A stretch of 64,000 nucleotides of DNA from Cenococcum geophilum (Eukaryota). A program made the translations under genes and the position numbers. A model generated the notes under the pieces. The model did no database searches, was not told the DNA's origin, and was given only the letters and a program-made list of their open reading frames with translations. The stretch is from NCBI GenBank assembly GCA_050273025.1, contig CP158635.1, forward strand, positions 17,360,001 to 17,424,000. Direction: 5' to 3'. Shown in pieces: positions 3,046 to 64,000 of the stretch (position 1 is the first letter of the stretch; every line of letters begins with the position of its first letter).

Positions 3046-6000
3046 TATTACGGACGCTTTAAGTACGATGTTATAACTACTTAGGGAAGAGTTAGAAGAA
3101 GCTAGTTGGTTAATTTAGGCACGGTCTAGGATGGAGCCGATAGAGCTATATGACGAGGAATAGTAACTGAGGTTATATAAGATCGGATACCTAGAACTCG
3201 GTCGCCCCCCGAACTCGGACGCGTTTCCCATACAAATTAGCGATTTTCCACCTCTATAAAAACAGTATTAGTAATATATTATTAATAATATAAAGTTCTA
3301 AATTTAAAGCTTATATAATCTTAAGTTAATTTATATAAAAAAAATTTTAAATTATCTTTATATGCTAATTTATTAACTAAACTAGAATTTATATAGTAAT
3401 TTGGCCCCCCTAAAAAACATACTATACTATTTTAATAAATTTTTTTATTAATATTTTTTAATAATATATAGCTATGCGACACCAGATTTCAATTTATATA
3501 GCATTTATATATATAGGCTTTTAAAATATAGCTATTTTAAAAATCTCCTATATAAAAAAACTAAAATTTTATATAGGAGCTTTTTAAAATAGCTATATTT
3601 TAAAAGCCTATATATATAAATGCTATATAAATTGAAATCTGGTGTCGCATAGCTATATATTATTAAAAAATATTAATAAAAAAATTTATTAAAATAGTAT
3701 AGTATGTTTTTTTAGGGGGCTAAATTACTATATAAAATAAACTATTCTATTTTTTAGGCGTATAAAGATCTTTTTTTAATTTTTTTTAATATAAATTTAC
3801 TTAAGACTATATAATCTTTAAGTTTAGAACTTTATATTATTAATAATATATTACTAATACTGTTTTTATAGAGGTAGAAAACCGGCATTTTATATGGGAA
3901 ACGCGTCCGAGTTCAGGAGGCGACCGAGTTCTGGGTTTTCGATCTTAACGTTATACATAATATATATAGTGTACGAAGGGAACGTACGTATAATATGTAT
4001 AACACATACCTTACGTATAAAGGGGATTTCTTAGAAGTATGGTTATATATTTAAAGGACCACAGTCCCTACCTAGATAGTTCTCTTCTTTATAGTAAATC
4101 TTAGAATATAATTAGAGTTAATCTATTAGGTAACTACTCCACCAGTTATATTTATGTTGTTAACTATTCTATACCTATATACCTAGCCCATTAATAAGTC
4201 CACTGTAGTATTTCCTATAAGGCTTCATTATACATTTACTACCAAGGTTATAGTAAAAAAAGTTAAATAATATGCCACTAAAAGCAGTAGCTATAACGGC
4301 GTTAATAGCGGCAACTACCTTAGAATTAGGTAATAATACTAGTATAGTAAATACTAACTCGCAACTAGTTACTGTTGGACAGCTATAGAAAATAGTTAAT
4401 TAATTAATAGATAATAATAGAATACTTAAAGAAAGAATTAATAGGATTAGAGTGGCTAAGGTTAAGTTACCCTTAATAGAGCAATTCTTAGGGGAGAAGT
4501 TAAAGCTTAAGGGATTCCTTATATAAATGCACTTTAAGGTTATATAGGAAGGAGTGAAGCTAGGAACGCCTATAGATTAAGTCGCTTATATAGGATTGTT
4601 CTTAACAGGAAGGGCACTTAAGTAGTTTAAGCCTTACCTTACGGAGGTATAAGAGTATAGTATAATAACTACTAATTAGGAAGTATAATATATATTCTTA
4701 AGTTAGAACGGGTTTGTAGAATAGTTAATATAGATATTTAGAAACCCGAAGGTAACTACTACGGTAAAAAGAAAACTTTAAACCCTAGTATAAAGAACTT
4801 TAGTAATTAAGTATATAACGTAGTTTTAAATATTAGTAATATAGGTTAAATAGAATAATAAAGCGCTTATAGTATAGTATAAATAGGGACTTAAAGCAAA
4901 AGTCTAAGATGTAAATTATTCTAATAGAAGATACGGACACTCTTAGGGATTTAATTAATTAAGCAATTAAGATTAATAATAGGATTTACTAAAGAGAGTA
5001 GACTAAGAAGGGTTAGGATAGAGTTCTATAGTTGTATAAGGCGTAGGGCACGCAATAATAAAGCTAAAGTTAAAAACTATAGTATAGCGTAGAGCTAATA
5101 GACCTAAGCAGTATTAAAGAAAATAAGAAACGGAATAAGCGACTATAGAAACCTAGAGGATAAGGATTAAGTAATTAAAGGTCTAAGGAGCAAAGGCTAA
5201 ACTAGGAATCTTAGCAATAGAAGACGTTTAAGCGGACTCTATAATAAGAAAAATAGTTTAAAGAAGGGGCTTATATAAATTATAAAAAATAGGGTTATTA
5301 CGTTAAAGACTATAGAAGTAGTTAAAGTTACTATATAGTAAAAGAAATAAGACTAGTAGAAGATATATATATAGAGGGATAATAGTGTACTATAAGGAAT
5401 AAAAGAATGTTTAATTAATAGTTTTGCGTTTTGTTATAATAACATATACTAAATTTATAAAGACGCTAAGTATAGCGTAAGCTATTAGCTATAAGAGCTA
5501 AAATTATTAGAGTTTAAAGGAACTAATAAACTAGTTTATAGATTGGATATTAAAGATAATAAATTTAATATAGGCGAAATATTCTGTAATAATAAGATAA
5601 TAAAGGCAGCTTACTAGGAGTATATAAACCTTAAAGATATTATATAAGAGGTAGAGGATAATTCCACTAAGAATAGGAAACATTAGTAGGGATTAAGACC
5701 CCACTAGATATAATATCTATCGCTTTATAAAATGTAAGAGAAGTAGGATAGTAAACTACTTTAGCACTTAATAAAGGCAAAAAGCTAAAGACTTAAGATT
5801 CTTAAGATAAGATAAGAGATAACTAAGATTCTTAAAATGAGATAAGGTAAGCTTAAGGACCTATAACGGACGATAACTAATAGAGTAGAGTAACGGCTTA
5901 GTTTAGTAATATATAAATGAGCTTAGGATGAAGTTTCCTAAAAGTATAAGACTCTTAAGATAAGATAAGAATACTATAGAAGCCTAGAGTTAAGCTTAAG

Positions 6001-9000
6001 ATAGAAGCAAGCTTAGGATTAAAAATCTTATAAAACTAAGACTTCTAGATATAAGTAAGGACTATTAAATAAACCAAGATTAAGAAGTAAGAAGACTTTA
6101 AGGATCTACTTATAAGGCGAAAACCAAAAGAAACCATAATAGAATTTAGATAGAGAATTATCGTATAGTAAGAATAGAAACTAGATAAAAGATCTAGTAT
6201 ACTAGGCTATATAAAGGACAGAGCGCTAATATAAAAAATCACTAATAGGCCTAGAGTAGGCATACTAAGAGCTAAGTAGCTTACTAAACTAGAAAATAAA
6301 AAGGATCTAAGAATCCCTATTAGGTTTAAAGAATAATATATAAAAGGCTATTATAATATAGTAATAAGAAGATACTTCCTTACGGACAAGCCGTATATAC
6401 TCTAGTAGCTATACTAAAAGTAGTATAAACAACGATATAATAATAAGTAGGAAGATTTCTATATGTGGTTAAATAAATAAGTTATTTAGGACCACCTAAT
6501 TATAGAGAAGGCTATAACTTATATTAAAGGAGCCTTAATTATAACGTTAAAAGATCTAAAGGAATAATTAGAGGACTAAAGAAGTAAGAGACGTATCTTA
6601 GTACCCGCGAATAAAGTCGTAACGTTCAGATTAGCACGATAAAGGTTTAAACTTAAAGATAAAAATAAGTTAAGAGTTAACCTAAAGCACCTAGTACACT
6701 ATACGTTATTATAAATTGTATATATAGACAATATATATAAAATACACAAGAATCTAAAGGAAAAGAATTAGAAGTACCTTATAAGGATATATTAGGCGCC
6801 AAAAGAGCAATAGTATAGGAATACTAAGTATATATATAGCTGGCATCTAACAGAAGTTTAAGAGTTAGGAGACTTAATACTTTAACTAAGAAGATTCCTT
6901 ATAGAAGAATGCTTAGACGGACGATAGTAGTAGAAATGCCTAGAGAATATGTATTTATAGTATATTAAAGATAAAAAGTAAACTAGGCATTAGCTAAAGA
7001 ATAAGCTAAGTATATAAGGATTAAGTAGCTAATAATTAGGAAAAGTAGAGGCCTATAAAACTAGAGGGAGCTAGTAATAAAGCCTTAGACCCTTAAAGGA
7101 ATTTAAGAACAACACCTAAATTTATAAGTTAAATAGTAAAATTAATAGTTTAAAGTACTAATAGATAGTGGAGTAACGCGGAACTATATTTTATTAGTAG
7201 TAGTTAAGAGAATGGGATTACCTTATAGGTAAAAGAAGCAACCTTACCTATTAGTTATAATTTTAGGAGATCTAATAGCCTATAGAGGAGGGATCATTAA
7301 CCTCAAAATAGGACCTATTTAGATAACCATTAAAGGAAGATGAATTAAGATGTCTTTTAATATCCTATTATTGGGACGGGATAAGGCAGTACTAGGGATG
7401 CCTTAGTTACAGAAATATAATCTAAAGATTAATTAGATTATAGGCTAGGTTAATATTAGAGATACGCGATAATATAAAATACGACAGCAAACTAAGTTAA
7501 AGCGACATATAAAGAGACTAAGTGAGGCTTAAGTTATATACTAAAAAGATATTATAAGTATGGCAAGAAACTATAGAGTCTAAAAAGCAAAAAGCTGGTA
7601 GATTATATAGCATAGGACTATAAAATAAAGTTAGAACTAGAAACGAGTCTAAGGTTCTTTTTAACATATAAGCTCACTAAAGAAGAGTTTAGAGCACTTA
7701 AAGAGTTTATCTAAGAAAACTTATAAAAGGGATATATTAAACTATTACAGTTATTAGCAGGTTATCTAGTACTATTTATACCAAAGAAGAACGGAAAACT
7801 TAGGTTATATATTAACTACAGATAGTTAAATAGTATTATTTAAAAGGATAGGTATATACTATTTCGAGATTTAGTATACTAAAGGAACTAAGAATATAAA
7901 AGCAGATATACTTAGTAGAAAGGCTAAACTATAAAATAATAAGAAACTATTAGGAGCAATGCTACGTAGAGATAAGGACGGATTAATTAGATATAATTAC
8001 CCTAAACTAGTAGTAACTTAGGAAGATAATAAACTAAAAAGAGTTTATAAGACACTAAAGAGCTTTTAGGTATAAAGAATTCTAAAGGCATAGCTAGAAG
8101 ATCTATAGATAGATATATATATAAATTAAGAAGCGAAGTATATCCTAAGAAGCATAGCAGAGCATTTTATAGAAGATTTCTATAGAGAAATAACTTAAGG
8201 ATATAATAGAGCAACAGGCTTAATATTAAGACTTTAGAAAGAATATATTATTAATAGAATCTAAAATATCGCAAAAAAGTAATAAAAGAATATTTAGATT
8301 ATTAAAGGAATAAACTAATAAGGTATAAGCCATATAGAGGGCTATAACCTATTAAAATACTAGAGAGACTATAGGAGGTTATATTATAGGACTTTATCGT
8401 TAAGTTACTAAAGTTAAGAGATTCTATTACCAAATAAGAATATAACGCGATCTTAGTAATAGTAGACAAGTTAACTAAGTAGGGCTACTTTATAGCATAT
8501 ATAGAAGAAATCTCAGCAGAGAATATCGCTAGAATCTATATTAAAGAAGTGTTCGCAAGATATAGAGCACTAAGTAAAATTATATTAGATAGAGATTTAA
8601 GATTTATAGCAGTATTCTAGGAGGTATTCTTAGCGGAGTAAGGAGTTAGAGCAGCAACTTTCACGATATATTACCCGCAGACAGACAGTTAAATAGAAAG
8701 ATTAAATTAGACGCTAGAATAGTATCTAAAACATTATATTAATTATACATAGAATAATTAGATATCACTATTATTAGTTATATAGTTTATATACAATATA
8801 ATACTATAGGAAGGAATAGGCACATTACTATTTAAGGCAAATTATAGATATAAGCCAAGAATATCATTATTACTATAGTAAGTGAAGAAAACGAGTAGTA
8901 TAGCTAAAGAAAAAATAAAGATACTAATAAATCTTTATACAGACCTTACGGAATTAGTAAAAAAGGTATAAGAGAAAATAAAAAGGTACTATAATGCTAT

Positions 9001-58820: not shown

Positions 58821-61246
58821 CTACTCAAACTGATCATCCCTAAACCCCGGCTCATCGTCCGCCCCCCGAATCGGGCCCATCGCCCCCGCGTCCAACAGCG
58901 GCGGCCCACCAACAGCCCCAATAAGACTCTTACGATGCCCCCTCGGACTCCGATCCAGCGTCTCGCTAACCTCCTCCACCATCCCCCCCTCGCCCCCCTC
59001 CTCGCCCTCCCCCTCAAACCCGCGCGCCGCAAGCCGGCACGCAAGCACCGCATCGCGCAGCTCGCCCAGAAAAGCCTGCATCCCCTCAAACGGCAGCGGC
59101 AGCCCGCCATCCGCGCCATACAGCCGCCGCGCCATGTCGAGGCTCTTCTCCGCCTGCAGCGCCTTGTCGAGCTTGAGCCACGCGTCGGCCGCCAGCACGG
59201 CCCACAGCGCCGCCTTGCGCCGCCGCGCGCCCCAGCGCATGCTGCCGACGCCCCCGCGCGCCGCGAAGCACGCGCCCACGCGCCCCGTGAACAGCGCGTG
59301 GCCGACGGGCCCGACGAGCCCGGCGTCGAGGACGCGCGCGGCCCAGCGCGCGGCGTCGTCGGCGGCGTCCCCGCCGCGGAGACGTAGCAGCTCGAGGCCC
59401 AGGGCTAGCGTGCGCAGCGCGTAGTAGGGCGCCGCGCACCGCGTTGCGTAGCTGTAGCTGGCGGCCTCGAGCCAGGTGTCGATGGTGTCGGTGCGGGATT
59501 TGGTAGGGAGTGGCGCGGGGTTCATGAGGGCGGAGACGGCGGCCATTTCGGCGGCGCCCGCGTAGTGCCGCCATGCTTTGTCGTTGGTGAAGTCGGTGCG
59601 GAGTAGGTCGTAGGTGCTGAGGGCGAGCTTGAAGTCGCGCAGCATGAAGGCGTAGTCGGCGAGTTTGCGCATCAGGGCTTCGGGCGCGTCCGGGCGGTAG
59701 AAACCTTGGAGCGAGTCGTAGTTGGAGCCTGATGAGCTTTGCGTGGGTGAGGATGAGGTGCGGTTAGACGAGAAGGGCGTCCAGCGTTTCGAGAGCGACA
59801 TGAAGCGGCCGGAGATGCCGCGGCGCCGCGACAGAATTTGCTCGTTCCAGGTGGCGGTGTTGCGTTCCATCGTGGGGATGATGGATTGTGTGACAAGTTC
59901 TCGGACGAAAGTGCGAAGGGCGGTAACGTCTGAATCGAAGAGGTAGGGAGCCGGATCTGTGATGTCGTCTGCGGCTTCTGTGAGAAGTTTTAGTATATTA
60001 CACATCCATTTGATGAAACAACAGCTTCCAGTTTATTATTCAATACTTCGTTTCTAAGAGAGGAGGGATAAATACCTCGCTTCTGGATCTCCGCAAGCTC
60101 TTCGGCGGCAGATAACCATTCACAAAGCGGAAGCTTGGTGCTATCATCGTCGGAAGGTATGCACTGGTTGCTTTTTAATCTAAGAAGATGACAGTGTAAC
60201 CCAAAATGCCGCTTCATTTGCTCAAAAAGCGCATTGGACTTTGTGATGTCGCTATGTTCTTCATCATGGATGAGAACATAATATCGAAGGAATTCGTTGT
60301 TTACCCATTGGGGTAATCTGTGATTTCCAGTGTTGGTACTACCGTATAGTCGCCGTAATTCTTCTATTGGTGAGGGGTTTCTAGAACTTATTGCAATTAT
60401 GCAGGCTACGGGGTGTGCGAATGTTTCGTGGGGTGTCATGGGGAGCCCCGAGAGTAGCCTTCGCAAGTATAGCGTGTAGAATGGTGATGTTGAACTGTCC
60501 GTGTGCGAAGGTTCATTTTGATGGTTCAGGTAGTCAGAGACTAGGTCGTGTGGCTGCAGCTCAGAATATTGTAGATGACGGTCCACGGCCTCCTCAATCT
60601 GCCCAATATCGCCTCCGGTCCTTGAGAAATTTAGTGATGTCCTTCCGCCGTCTCGATAGCCGTTTGCGCCCTCTGGCCTGACTTCTGTGCTCCTCCTTCC
60701 GGGAACTAACGGTACGCCCAAACCATCTGTCATTCCAGTAAATCGTATGCCAAAATCCTCCCAGCTCCTACTTGCGCCGACGCTGTCCCTAATGGTAACT
60801 TTTCCAGGTACAGATTCCCCAAAAGGTCTGAGCAACTCCAGAAGCCCCCCGGTGAACCCCTTGGCTTTTACTATTTCCTCCGTATCCGCCGACGCCACTA
60901 TAGCTACATGGGGCACAAAGGACCGTAATATTAGGTTTCTCGGTTCATCTGGCCTGCCTGCCGACGAGTTTGCGGGAGACCGAGTTCCATTTGCTCTTGG
61001 GCCAGGAGAAAATATAGAGCCAGGGATGGCTTGTGCGAGTGGAGTGGCAGTACCTGAGCTAGGGCGAGATGACGGGAGTGATGCGGTCGAGGCGAACAGC
61101 GAGGAGAGCGAAGGATTAGAACGCCTATAGGGCAGGCTAGCTATAGAGGAGTTGGGCGACTGTCTCCGCTTAGGTAAGACTATTGAGGACTGCAAATCGG
61201 CGTACTGGGCGGGTTTAAAAGGCGATGCATCTTGCGAAGGCGTCAT
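58821..61246 (-). CDS. TRS85: TRAPP III subunit Trs85/TRAPPC8
   Basis: HETFAHPVACIIAISS, LRYYVLIHDE, MKRHFGLHCHLL, PEALMRKLADYAFMLRD; intron 59978-60075. Confidence 0.92.
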
Positions 61247-61619
61247 GGGAGCCTTCGACGAGGGACCCGGCTGGGAGGATATATGCGCGCGAATGCTAAG
61301 GGACAGCTCATGGATCGTGACGATGGGAAGATCCCAGTGGGAGGGGGTTGAGGGTGGTAATAATGGGGATTGGCGAGTTATTGGTTAGGTGTTGCGCTGG
61401 AAGTTGGAAGTGACGAAGCACCGGAGCAAACGGTGACCTGCACCAGAATTTGAGCATGTGCCATCTCCCCTGCTATACAACCTCCCTTTACGAGCGAATT
61501 AAAGAGACTCTCACACTCGTTTCTTCAAAATACTTCTTCACCACCACTCTAGACACATAAAGTGTGCGGCGTAAATAGTACAGGGTGTGGTAATCCCTCA
61601 TTTAGGCACTCTCACATGA

Positions 61620-64000
61620 ATGACTCTTCGCCTTTGTTCACGCCTTTTCCACTCTTCTTTTCTTCGCCGTGAGCCCATCTCACATCTTCCTTTATCAGCT
61701 CCCCCACCATTTTTTTGTGCGTCAAAACATATCTTATTCAGCCATTCTCGCTGTATGTCCTTGCAAAGGCGCCCAAGTCCTACTTCACAAGACGAGCAAA
61801 CTTCAAAACGGCGGAAAGTCGAACATCAAGCTCCGCCCAAAACATATCCCCGCAGAGCTATGACTACAAATTTGAATCCCCAAACTCTCGAGCTCACGGA
61901 AGTTGAGACTACCCTGCGCCAGCTGTTGTTGGATGTAGCCGAATATATAGACCGCACGTCCGTGCCCGAACCCGTTGACCCCCAAGTGAAGGTACCAGAT
62001 GAGCTCGCAAAAGCTAAGATCGAGCTTCGCTTTACTGGAGGGTGGGTCCGGGACAAGCTGCTCGGCGTGGGCAGCCACGATATTGATGTTGCTATCAACA
62101 AGATGACTGGCTTCCAATTCGGGCTAAAAATGAGAGAATACCTCGAGATCCCTGGAAATCCAGAGAAATACGGAATAGCCCCAGCCTCATCCAGTACTAA
62201 AGCCAACGCGAATGGAAAGGGTAGAGACATCGGGCACGGTCTGTATAAGATTGAGGCAAACCCGGAGAAGTCAAAACACCTTGAAACAGTCACGACCAAA
62301 ATTCTAGGCTTAGATATCGACCTTGTGAACCTTCGCAAAGAAACGTATACTGAAGACAGCCGTAACCCTCAGATGGAATTTGGAACGCCGGAGGAGGACG
62401 CAATGAGGCGCGATGCCACTGTTAATGCCATGTTCTATAACCTTGAAACATGTGCTATCGAAGATTTCACGGGTCGTGGCTTCCAAGACATGCAACTAAA
62501 GATTATTCGAACCCCTTTGGAACCATATCAAACATTCAAAGACGATCCTCTAAGAGTTTTGAGATTGATCCGATTTGCAAGTAGGCTGAACTACAGCATC
62601 GACCCTGATACGGAGAATGCGATGGAAAACGAAGACATAAAAAGCGCCTTAAAATTAAAGATTAGTCGTGAGAGAGTTGGTATCGAGATAGAGAAGATGC
62701 TCAAGGGACCAGACCCACACAGGGCTCTAGCGCTCATCGATCGGCTTGGTCTCTACGACACTATCTTCACAGACCCAACAAAAGAGATATCGTACAAGCC
62801 CGATATTTCCTACATAAAACCCGCATATGACTGCGTTTTCGAGCTTTCGCGGTCTACCAGCGATCAAGAAACTCTCTCTGTAATATCATCAACCCTTCTC
62901 AGAAACTTTGACGAGAAATATCTAGCCTGGATTGCCGCCGCATTGGTTCCATGGGCCGACGCTCCATTACCCAATCCTCCTAAAAAAGGCGGCAAAACAA
63001 CTTACACTGCCCAACTAGTCGCTCGCGAGGGTATCAAGGCCCCCAATAAGATCTCTGAAGTGATTACATCTTCAGTGGAACATTCCGAAAATATTCGAGC
63101 TTTGAAGGACCGATGCGTGACTCAGCTGAAATATCCACATCGACGACAGGAAGGTGAGGATGCCACAGCAAGAGACACACTAGGGATGGCAATCCGGCGC
63201 TGGGGTCAAACGTGGAGGAGCCAAGTTCTATTCTCCTTGTTATACGAGGTCTCGATTGGATCAATTCCAAAAGACAGTGAGTATTTGACCTTAAATGTAT
63301 TTCATTCGTTTCTAACCTCATCACGTAGCGGTTATTTCGTCTTATGCCACCTTCCTCTCTCAATTGGTCAAGCTTGACGTTCTCGAGGCGTACAAATATA
63401 AACCCTTAGTCACAGGCACAGAGTTAGCAAGCGCTCTCTCAACACCCCCAGGACCATGGATGAAAGATGCGCTGGAAGTGGTAATGGCCTGGCAACTCCG
63501 GTACCCCGAGGTTAAAGACCGAGCCGCTGCAATCGAAGCAGTGAAAGCACACAACGAGGCTAAACTCCAAGACGAGACTAAACGCGAGGAAAAGAATAGT
63601 GAGCTCCCTGCCCGTCTCGCCACTCATTTCTTGCAGCTTACCATCCGCCCTCTGTTCACCTCCTCACAGAAACAGTCTCATCCAAATCTCACGGCGGCGG
63701 GTCGTAAAGCCACACAACCCAAACCCCACAAAACGCTCAATTTCGATGAGTCCGTCAAAGAGCTTTGGAAGGATCCACACTATGGATGGGCCTTAGACCT
63801 CCTTCGTTGGGTACTTTGTACGCTAGACTCCAAAGGTGTTGAAACGAATTGGGGTCTCATAGTTCCGCCCATTCTAAGAATGCTTGATGACATAGAAACG
63901 GCGTGGAAAGCAGCGGGATGCGAATTACTGACAATGCTATTGAATATCACTCCACCTGCACTACTAGCAAAAACTGGGCTTGGAAATGTATTCGAGGAAG
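61620..64000 (+). CDS. CCA1: tRNA nucleotidyltransferase (CCA-adding enzyme) extended in frame by a Tti2-like domain; runs off window
   Basis: GGWVRDKLLG..DIDVAI, EDAMRRDATVNA, DDPLRVLRLIRF, ISRERVG; intron 63277-63328; exon 2 open to base 64000. Confidence 0.92.

Follow-up and report, generated by a model that had tools for sequence, protein, structure and literature searches.

How can one gene serve both the maturation of tRNA 3' ends and the assembly of growth-control kinases? This question is raised by a locus at the right-hand end of a 64,000-nt stretch of the Cenococcum geophilum genome (contig CP158635.1, positions 17,360,001 to 17,424,000 of the forward strand; hereafter the window), where the reading frame of a CCA-adding enzyme, CCA1, runs on without a stop into sequence resembling Tti2, a subunit of the Tel2-Tti1-Tti2 (TTT) co-chaperone of PIKK kinases. 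CCA addition and the maturation of PIKKs such as TOR, ATR and ATM are both essential, and we know of no link between the two. The original prediction, made from the letters of the window, had CCA1 continuing in frame into a Tti2-like domain, the two halves perhaps being separated by processing or alternative transcripts, and it has held up well: a hidden Markov model (HMM) match, a conserved frame and RNA that passes through the joint all speak for it. Here we argue that a single transcription unit probably gives rise to two proteins, CCA1 alone or a CCA1-Tti2 fusion, by means of a switch that retains or removes a small second intron.

The CCA1 part begins on the plus strand with exon 1 (61620..63276), which according to the list of open reading frames (ORFs), the sequence and Pfam holds the catalytic head and the RNA-binding region. 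The PolyA_pol head (PF01743) is matched with E 3.7e-22 and 79.5 bits against a cut-off of 23, and the neck/RNA-binding region PolyA_pol_RNAbd (PF12627) with E 2.5e-08 and 34 bits against a cut-off of 22. Exon 1 is followed by intron 1 (63277..63328, plus strand; 52 nt, GTGAGT..TAG, with a CTAAC motif resembling a branch site), which had been proposed from the sequence and turns out to be a real, constitutive GT..AG intron: the joint 63276>63329 is spliced in all four RNA data sets that we compared over 61400-64000, namely raw RNA-seq of a strain that is 95-99% alike (X19; 38 reads) and three metatranscriptomes (X4, X5 and X10; contigs). Exon 2a (63329..63598, plus strand) then encodes the C-terminal tail of CCA1 (PGPWMKDALEVVMAWQL...) and a charged linker, as judged by profile alignment and a weak PF13735 match. 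That such a tail follows intron 1 had likewise been claimed, and the profile of alignment A1 bears this out, aligning in the exon 2a region with the C-termini of S. pombe cca2 (9ns4_A, residues 407-472 of 487, E 8.9e-12) and cca1 (9ns2_A, residues 423-485 of 502). These solved S. pombe CCA enzymes stop 15-17 residues past the matching tail motif. For the fold of the CCA part we turned to a relative, the Lophium fusion P0002 (64% identity over the query segment), whose AlphaFold2 (AF2) model has a predicted local distance difference test score (pLDDT) of 90.2 and finds 9kma as its top Foldseek match (E 1.5e-20, TM(target) 0.76). By its domains, its tail and the fold of this relative, the CCA1 part is assigned to the class II CCA-adding enzymes, and CCA addition is its predicted activity.

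Past this tail the frame stays open. From 63316 to 63999 it counts 228 codons without a stop up to the window end, and holds PGPWMKDALEVVMAWQLRYP, ELPARLATHFLQLTIRPLF and TGLGNVFEE in that order, which is what had been reported of it in both coordinates and content. L002, a metagenome/strain contig that differs from the window at 21 of 3685 nt (99.4% identity), extends the ORF from 63316 to 464 codons, with a TGA at the window-equivalent 64708-64710; window and L002 together give, from the ATG at 61860, a fusion of 932 amino acids. On the intron-retained mRNA the Tti2 moiety, delimited by Pfam, profile and AF2, covers 63599..64000 on the plus strand, where it is cut by the window end, and by L002 reaches to ~64707. 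An HMM check set beforehand for the claimed Tti2-like domain gave a strong match: ORF residues 89-228 match PF10521 with E 2.1e-33 and 116.5 bits against a cut-off of 25.2, over profile positions 32-169 of 279, and the near-identical protein P0001 scores 250.8 bits over positions 32-278 of 279. As sequence matches, those to PolyA_pol, RNAbd and Tti2 are far beyond chance, and by the HMM the Tti2 part clearly belongs to the PF10521 family. A single-sequence phmmer search with the Tti2 part against PDB chains returned a chance-level match alone (E 0.18), but the A1 profile did reach human TTI2 (7f4u_C, residues 214-432, E 9.1e-06). The AF2 model of the ~370-residue Tti2 part is an all-helical solenoid (pLDDT 93, predicted template modelling score (pTM) 0.90), for which Foldseek and VIA returned generic importin/ARM/HEAT proteins (best VIA Z 17.2), with no TTI2 chain among the matches listed. 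The domain is not full-length: the N-terminal ~190 residues of free-standing fungal Tti2 are absent from it. In passages of Pal et al. 2021 (PMC8278493), TTI1 was recovered with the N-terminal part of human TTI2 (1-193) but not with the C-terminal part (194-508), which proved insoluble, and N-terminal glutathione S-transferase (GST) fusions of TTI2 were functional in pull-downs. Since such GST fusions worked, an N-terminal appendage on Tti2 would seem tolerable, as far as those passages go.

So what decides whether a ribosome ever reads into this moiety? At the end of the charged linker, within Ser-Glu-Leu codons, lies a donor A|GTGAGC (63598/63599), and at 63669 an acceptor CACAG|; together they bound an optional, exonic intron 2 (63599..63669, plus strand; 71 nt, GTGAGC..CAG), which is defined by RNA joints, by the spliced tail of the protein P0088 and by the conserved donor. 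In X10 the joint 63598>63670 occurs both as a 60-nt spliced unitig of depth 13.1 and as a 131-nt unspliced unitig of depth 22.8. X19 holds four reads with the intron 2 splice against a local depth of ~21, and these spliced reads are displaced by a strain single-nucleotide polymorphism, as in the contig L001. X4 and X5 each provide one contig of ~3.4 kb, running from 61430 to ~890 nt beyond the window end, from which intron 1 has been spliced and in which intron 2 is retained. The RNA over the locus comes from the plus strand, and because intron 1 has been removed from them, the contigs that retain intron 2 represent processed RNA. Intron 2 is as such an alternative exonic intron, a GT..AG intron inside an open frame with both RNA forms present, from which stable isoform proteins are predicted. 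The region 63550-63600 had been singled out beforehand as the place where ending or restarting transcripts would speak against a fused mRNA. Intron 2 starts at 63599, inside this region, and its splicing yields CCA1 alone; RNA also reads through the joint. Separately, 11 molecules of X19 share an end at 63501 (plus strand), right after the WQLRYP codons, where the depth falls from 57 to 33; behind this cluster may lie noise, a difference between strains, or a minor end of the RNA.

The effect on coding is drastic in either direction. When retained, intron 2 encodes ELPARLATHFLQLTIRPLFTSSQ, which includes ELPARLATHFLQLTIRPLF, the first helix of the Tti2 match and its best conserved one, and since this helix lies inside the intron, Tti2 is expected from the retained form only. 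When intron 2 is removed, the frame shifts into exon 2b (63670..63707, plus strand), a 12-residue tail KTVSSKSHGGGS closed by a TAA at 63705-63707, as read from the sequence and from the tails of P0088, P0293 and those predicted for L001 and L002. The spliced product would be CCA1 only, with 574 amino acids from the ATG at 61860 or 654 from that at 61620. P0088 represents this form: it derives from a Logan contig cluster of 45 members, has 572 amino acids with 97% identity, is without both introns and ends in ...KNKTTSSKSHSGGS. Because the tail and the C-terminal stretches of the S. pombe enzymes align, the spliced product ends at the normal C-terminus of a CCA enzyme, and a CCA1 of normal length is predicted from the spliced form only. 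The suggestion that alternative transcripts might separate the two halves has in this way found its vehicle, a 71-nt splice that leaves CCA1 alone.

A scan of metagenome contigs yielded 80 loci, of which the joint could be parsed in 77 (L033, L073 and L076 were missed). The frame is open from the CCA tail onwards in all 77; counted from VVMAWQL, 63 stop after 360-410 codons and 14 run off the contig still open. This bears on the sceptical view that the fusion is an artefact of annotation or assembly, in which the retained RNA would be unprocessed precursor and the Tti2-like frame would remain untranslated. Gene predictors do read through any open frame, and some genomes annotate only a CCA1 of 550-630 amino acids (Ascochyta lentis P0299, Coniothyrium glycines P0309, Cladosporium halotolerans P0339). 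An artefact would nonetheless have to account for a frame that is open in every parsed locus, for retained contigs from which intron 1 is gone, for a first conserved Tti2 helix that only the retained form can make, and for a Tti2 part that is conserved as protein across classes, with 916 proteins matched at E<=0.001 when this part alone is searched against the whole library. We therefore consider the artefact very improbable indeed.

The splice signals themselves are conserved to a degree that the protein does not demand. The donor GTGAGC is present in 60 of 60 distinct joint regions, and an NAG acceptor lies at +65 in 56 and at +71 in 30 of these, one or the other being found in 59, with all lengths equal to 2 mod 3. 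Across 63 distinct loci, only three residues have a third-position entropy close to 0, namely the donor Glu (GAG in 63/63), Leu (CTT in 62/63) and Thr (ACC in 57/63), whereas it amounts to 1-2 bits at most of the ~65 other conserved columns; the residue before the donor Glu is either Ser or Gly, always written as AGT or GGT. Synonymous sites frozen at the donor and at CTTAC reveal selection on RNA signals, not on protein. The CTTACC element (63637..63642, plus strand), recognised by these frozen CTT/ACC codons, lies 28 nt before the acceptor, and across loci CTTAC is found 23-29 nt ahead of the acceptors, the place expected of a branch site. The usual branch-site consensus is CTRAC, to which the CTAAC of intron 1 conforms; the frozen CTTAC avoids the synonymous CTA and CTG that would yield CTRAC. 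The element is likely a weak branch site, and we infer that it is kept weak deliberately, so that splicing stays partial. A hairpin masking the donor, with GUGAGC paired to GCUUACC, was considered as well and dropped: the 92-nt fold has z = 0.48, and in the best fold the two are not paired with each other.

How general is this arrangement? Among the 120 matches listed to the last-exon ORF, 63 are CCA1+Tti2 models (PF01743 + PF10521, ~800-1010 amino acids), from genera of the Pleosporales, Mytilinidiales, Botryosphaeriales, Venturiales, Dothideales, Capnodiales-type and Myriangiales; the closest named match among those listed is Lophium mytilinum, with 64% identity. The fused frame, which it had been proposed to map across the Dothideomycetes, is found throughout the class. 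The original prediction left aside whether relatives carry the fusion in their annotation, and fused models are in fact already public in dozens of them, with a Septoria entry naming both domains. A literature search, supplements lying outside it, found no paper joining Tti2 with CCA1 or tRNA nucleotidyltransferase.

The short isoform is just as visible in the relatives. With the C-terminus of P0088 as query, 19 of the 120 matches listed have CCA domains without Tti2, and of 20 CCA1-type proteins examined, 17 stop at the joint and carry short tails unrelated to Tti2, the exceptions being P0346, P0343 and P0298. The tails of P0316, P0301 and P0342 are letter-for-letter those predicted from loci L030 and L056; by eye, GQTG (Cladosporium halotolerans P0339) matches the AAG-acceptor prediction for L004-type sequences, and GQSSNGH (P0361) that for L046. 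Ascochyta lentis is annotated both ways (P0299 with 552 and P0104 with 905 amino acids).

These short forms matter for a second alternative, according to which the fusion is the only functional protein and carries both activities, while the splicing of intron 2 is a non-productive outlet into nonsense-mediated decay (NMD) that tunes the mRNA level. The spliced form is indeed in the minority in both X10 and X19, its stop lies ~1.2 kb upstream of the 3' end, and the shifted-frame tails, at 1-29 residues, are conserved neither in sequence nor in length. Yet the spliced product stops where solved CCA enzymes do, and spliced transcripts are plentiful enough to have been assembled in many species, as the 17 proteins and the P0088 cluster attest. 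Moreover, many lineages stop right after the splice, 16 of the 59 tails being a single residue, and a Tti2 fusion bearing a presequence would take a cytosolic chaperone subunit into mitochondria, if the targeting of yeast Cca1 is any guide. We judge this alternative improbable, and return to the reading in which both forms are productive.

At the start of the gene, there are three in-frame ATGs in CCA1, at 61620, 61755 and 61860, the first of which opens the presequence-like MTLRLCSRLFHSSFLRR (MTLRLCSRLF...). Two relatives derived from transcripts, P0293 and P0294, begin at the position equivalent to ATG 61620, both with the spliced, Tti2-free end, and P0088 starts at the equivalent of the third. 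The short form would be the main or the mitochondrial CCA enzyme. As an observation in its own right, X19 reaches a depth of 95-150x over the 5' leader (window 61445-61704, plus strand) versus 5-25x over the CCA1 body, with fragment ends clustering at 61445/61482 and at 61704. The pattern suggests either an abundant short plus-strand RNA of ~220 nt or promoter-proximal termination, ending between the ATGs at 61620 and 61755; an Rfam search of the 5' leader (61300-61900) gave no match.

The RNA depth further downstream leads to a third alternative, namely that CCA1 and Tti2 are overlapping but separate genes. Tti2 would then be made alone, either from a promoter lying within the 3' part of CCA1, with translation starting at the Met of PGPWM (63458) or of VVMAW, or by cleavage of the fusion, and the full fusion would never be a working species. 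The X19 depth rises at 63314-63487 (52-57 versus 21-24) and again over the Tti2 body (97-122), both of these Mets are invariant in alignment A1, a 1440-nt Logan contig encodes the 415-residue P0001 starting MKDALEVV, and in Teloschistes CCA1 and Tti2 are annotated as adjoining separate genes. Against this, the interval 63300-63750 showed no flagged cluster of RNA 5' ends, and the X10 unitigs, unlike X19, are equally deep on both sides of the joint (25.7 versus 22.5). Separate genes would have no need for the in-frame relation that is kept in 77/77 loci. Furthermore, the Mets of PGPWM and VVMAW sit within the CCA1 tail domain, the stretch of the alignment that joins the CCA tail to the first Tti2 helix has no conserved Met, and a start near 63700 leaves only the Met at 63880, with loss of the conserved first helices. 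Given the lack of a flagged 5'-end cluster and the even depth in X10, we did not adopt an internal promoter as the explanation of the X19 depth; separate genes are kept as a rival that we regard as unlikely.

The intron-retention switch that we prefer can be put as follows. All mature mRNAs would lose intron 1. A minority would lose intron 2 as well, and in these the shifted frame would end CCA1 12 codons on, giving an enzyme of ordinary length. The majority would keep intron 2 and with it the first Tti2 helix, so that the ribosome would read on into the 932-residue fusion. With a donor that is strong and frozen, and a branch-like CTTAC that is likewise frozen and departs from the consensus, splicing would stay partial, and this would set the ratio of the products. 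The cell most likely obtains its Tti2 from the fusion, provided that the latter is translated and acts as Tti2 in the maturation of PIKKs.

Several points weigh against this account. The evidence stands at the level of DNA and RNA, from which both the accumulation of the 932-residue fusion and its binding of Tti1 and Tel2 are predicted, and short reads and assembled contigs are no proof of one molecule carrying both halves. X19 covers the Tti2 part at a depth of 97-122, or 4-5 times that of the CCA1 body (5-25), which could reflect an additional, Tti2-only transcript. With a 3' UTR of ~1.2 kb, the spliced mRNA might be a target of NMD instead of a productive message. Our view is of the 64-kb window, and a second copy of TTI2 or CCA1 may lie elsewhere in the genome. 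Finally, the Tti2 part is without the region matching human TTI2 1-193, to which TTI1 binding is ascribed in the passages of Pal et al., and its competence as Tti2 is accordingly not self-evident but a real puzzle.

One way out of this puzzle would be for CCA1 itself to take part in TTT. Throughout the Dothideomycetes and Arthoniomycetes, the helical body of CCA1 would then replace the lost Tti1-binding half of Tti2, only the Tti2 tethered to it would serve, and the frozen weak-branch intron would be a regulated switch linking the capacity for tRNA 3'-end maturation, or the mitochondrial versus cytosolic supply of CCA1, to the biogenesis of TOR and other PIKKs. We offer this as a speculation with the odds well against it. 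The full-length AF2 model of P0002 (911 residues; pLDDT 90.2, pTM 0.82), with a joint helix (546-563) at pLDDT ~89-96 preceded by a loop at ~71-89, is compatible, as a single-chain model, with a fixed arrangement in which both halves would form one body.

The wider distribution bears on the age of the arrangement. Free-standing Tti2 proteins of 510-570 amino acids are found in Lecanoromycetes (Psora, Teloschistes, Agyrium), Sordariomycetes (Clonostachys, Camillea, Colletotrichum) and Leotiomycetes (Diplocarpon, Xylogone), and have ~190 extra N-terminal residues. The tight, truncated fusion occurs in Arthoniomycetes too (Coniocarpon, 892 amino acids; Chrysothrix, 1013), and in Eurotiomycetes there are long fused models with a whole Tti2 (profile from 1-2), of 1236 amino acids in Helicocarpus and 1049-1166 in Aspergillus (23 of 24 matches). 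In Teloschistes, CCA1 and Tti2 stand on neighbouring locus tags in one annotation (525 + 532 amino acids) and are merged in another (1070). Outside the Dothideomycetes the comparison was made at the level of proteins. Since Eurotiomycetes, Lecanoromycetes and Arthoniomycetes models share the order of CCA1 followed by Tti2, this order is older than the Dothideomycetes; the compact, N-terminally truncated form with a junction intron is, judging from the sequences compared, the dothideomycete/arthoniomycete state. Some individual entries deserve mention. P0101, a Tti2 of 429 amino acids with a CCA tail, is filed under Quercus suber and is probably fungal DNA in a plant assembly. Colletotrichum truncatum has a free-standing Tti2, P0245, that goes by 'poly polymerase protein', apparently a label inherited from fused models. 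In P0131, an unnamed Logan protein of 364 amino acids, only ~12 residues precede the first Tti2 helix, and a CCA tail is absent; it may stem from a lineage with a free short Tti2, or from a cut gene call.

If the fusion is the only Tti2 of this class, which includes many crop pathogens and extremotolerant black yeasts, then their TTT would be built unlike that of yeast or human: a Tti2 without its usual Tti1-binding half would carry a 60-kDa enzyme, and one small intron would determine how much housekeeping enzyme is made relative to growth-control chaperone. Current annotations would each be half right, with either a 900-residue fusion or a 550-residue enzyme, and both isoforms are worth recording. 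Moreover, the locus offers a clean natural case of splice signals under selection at synonymous sites within a coding helix.

The surroundings of the gene can be described briefly. Its divergent upstream neighbour (58821-61384, minus strand) encodes the TRAPP subunit Trs85 in two ORF pieces, which match PF12739 over profile positions 1-249 and 260-452; because these positions are split over the two pieces, an intron is placed near 60000. Downstream of the Tti2 stop, on L002, a convergent region (4765-6459, minus strand) holds ORFs that by eye look like a molybdopterin-biosynthesis protein of the MoeA/gephyrin type.

How, then, does this locus compare with known systems? With the class II CCA enzymes, such as yeast Cca1, S. 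pombe cca1/cca2 (9ns2/9ns4) and the Arabidopsis enzyme (9kma), it shares the head, the RNA-binding domains, the tail and, as modelled for the relative P0002, the fold, and its translation shows GGWVRD...DID and RRD, motifs of these enzymes. Yeast CCA1 has several in-frame start codons, as does the gene in the window. It differs from them in that most of its mRNA reads on into ~370 residues of Tti2, the normal stop being reached only after the optional splice. Tti2/TTI2 of TTT (PF10521; human 7f4u, 7ole) is alike in family HMM and profile match, with an all-helical solenoid predicted for the Tti2 part here, whereas the Tti2 of the window lacks a start codon, begins at profile position 32 and is attached to an enzyme. 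The long Pezizomycotina models (Aspergillus, Helicocarpus, Teloschistes) combine the same two families in the same order, but keep the full N-terminus of Tti2, and, known as proteins, they may be either true fusions or merged models. The closest parallel in mechanism is provided by exitrons and intron-retention switches, and by read-through or conjoined genes, where retaining or removing an intron of the coding sequence gives two proteins. Here, too, a GT..AG intron lies inside coding sequence, with two proteins expected from its retention or removal. What sets the CCA1-Tti2 locus apart is that its switch would uncouple two unrelated essential functions, and that its signals are frozen at synonymous sites across an entire class.

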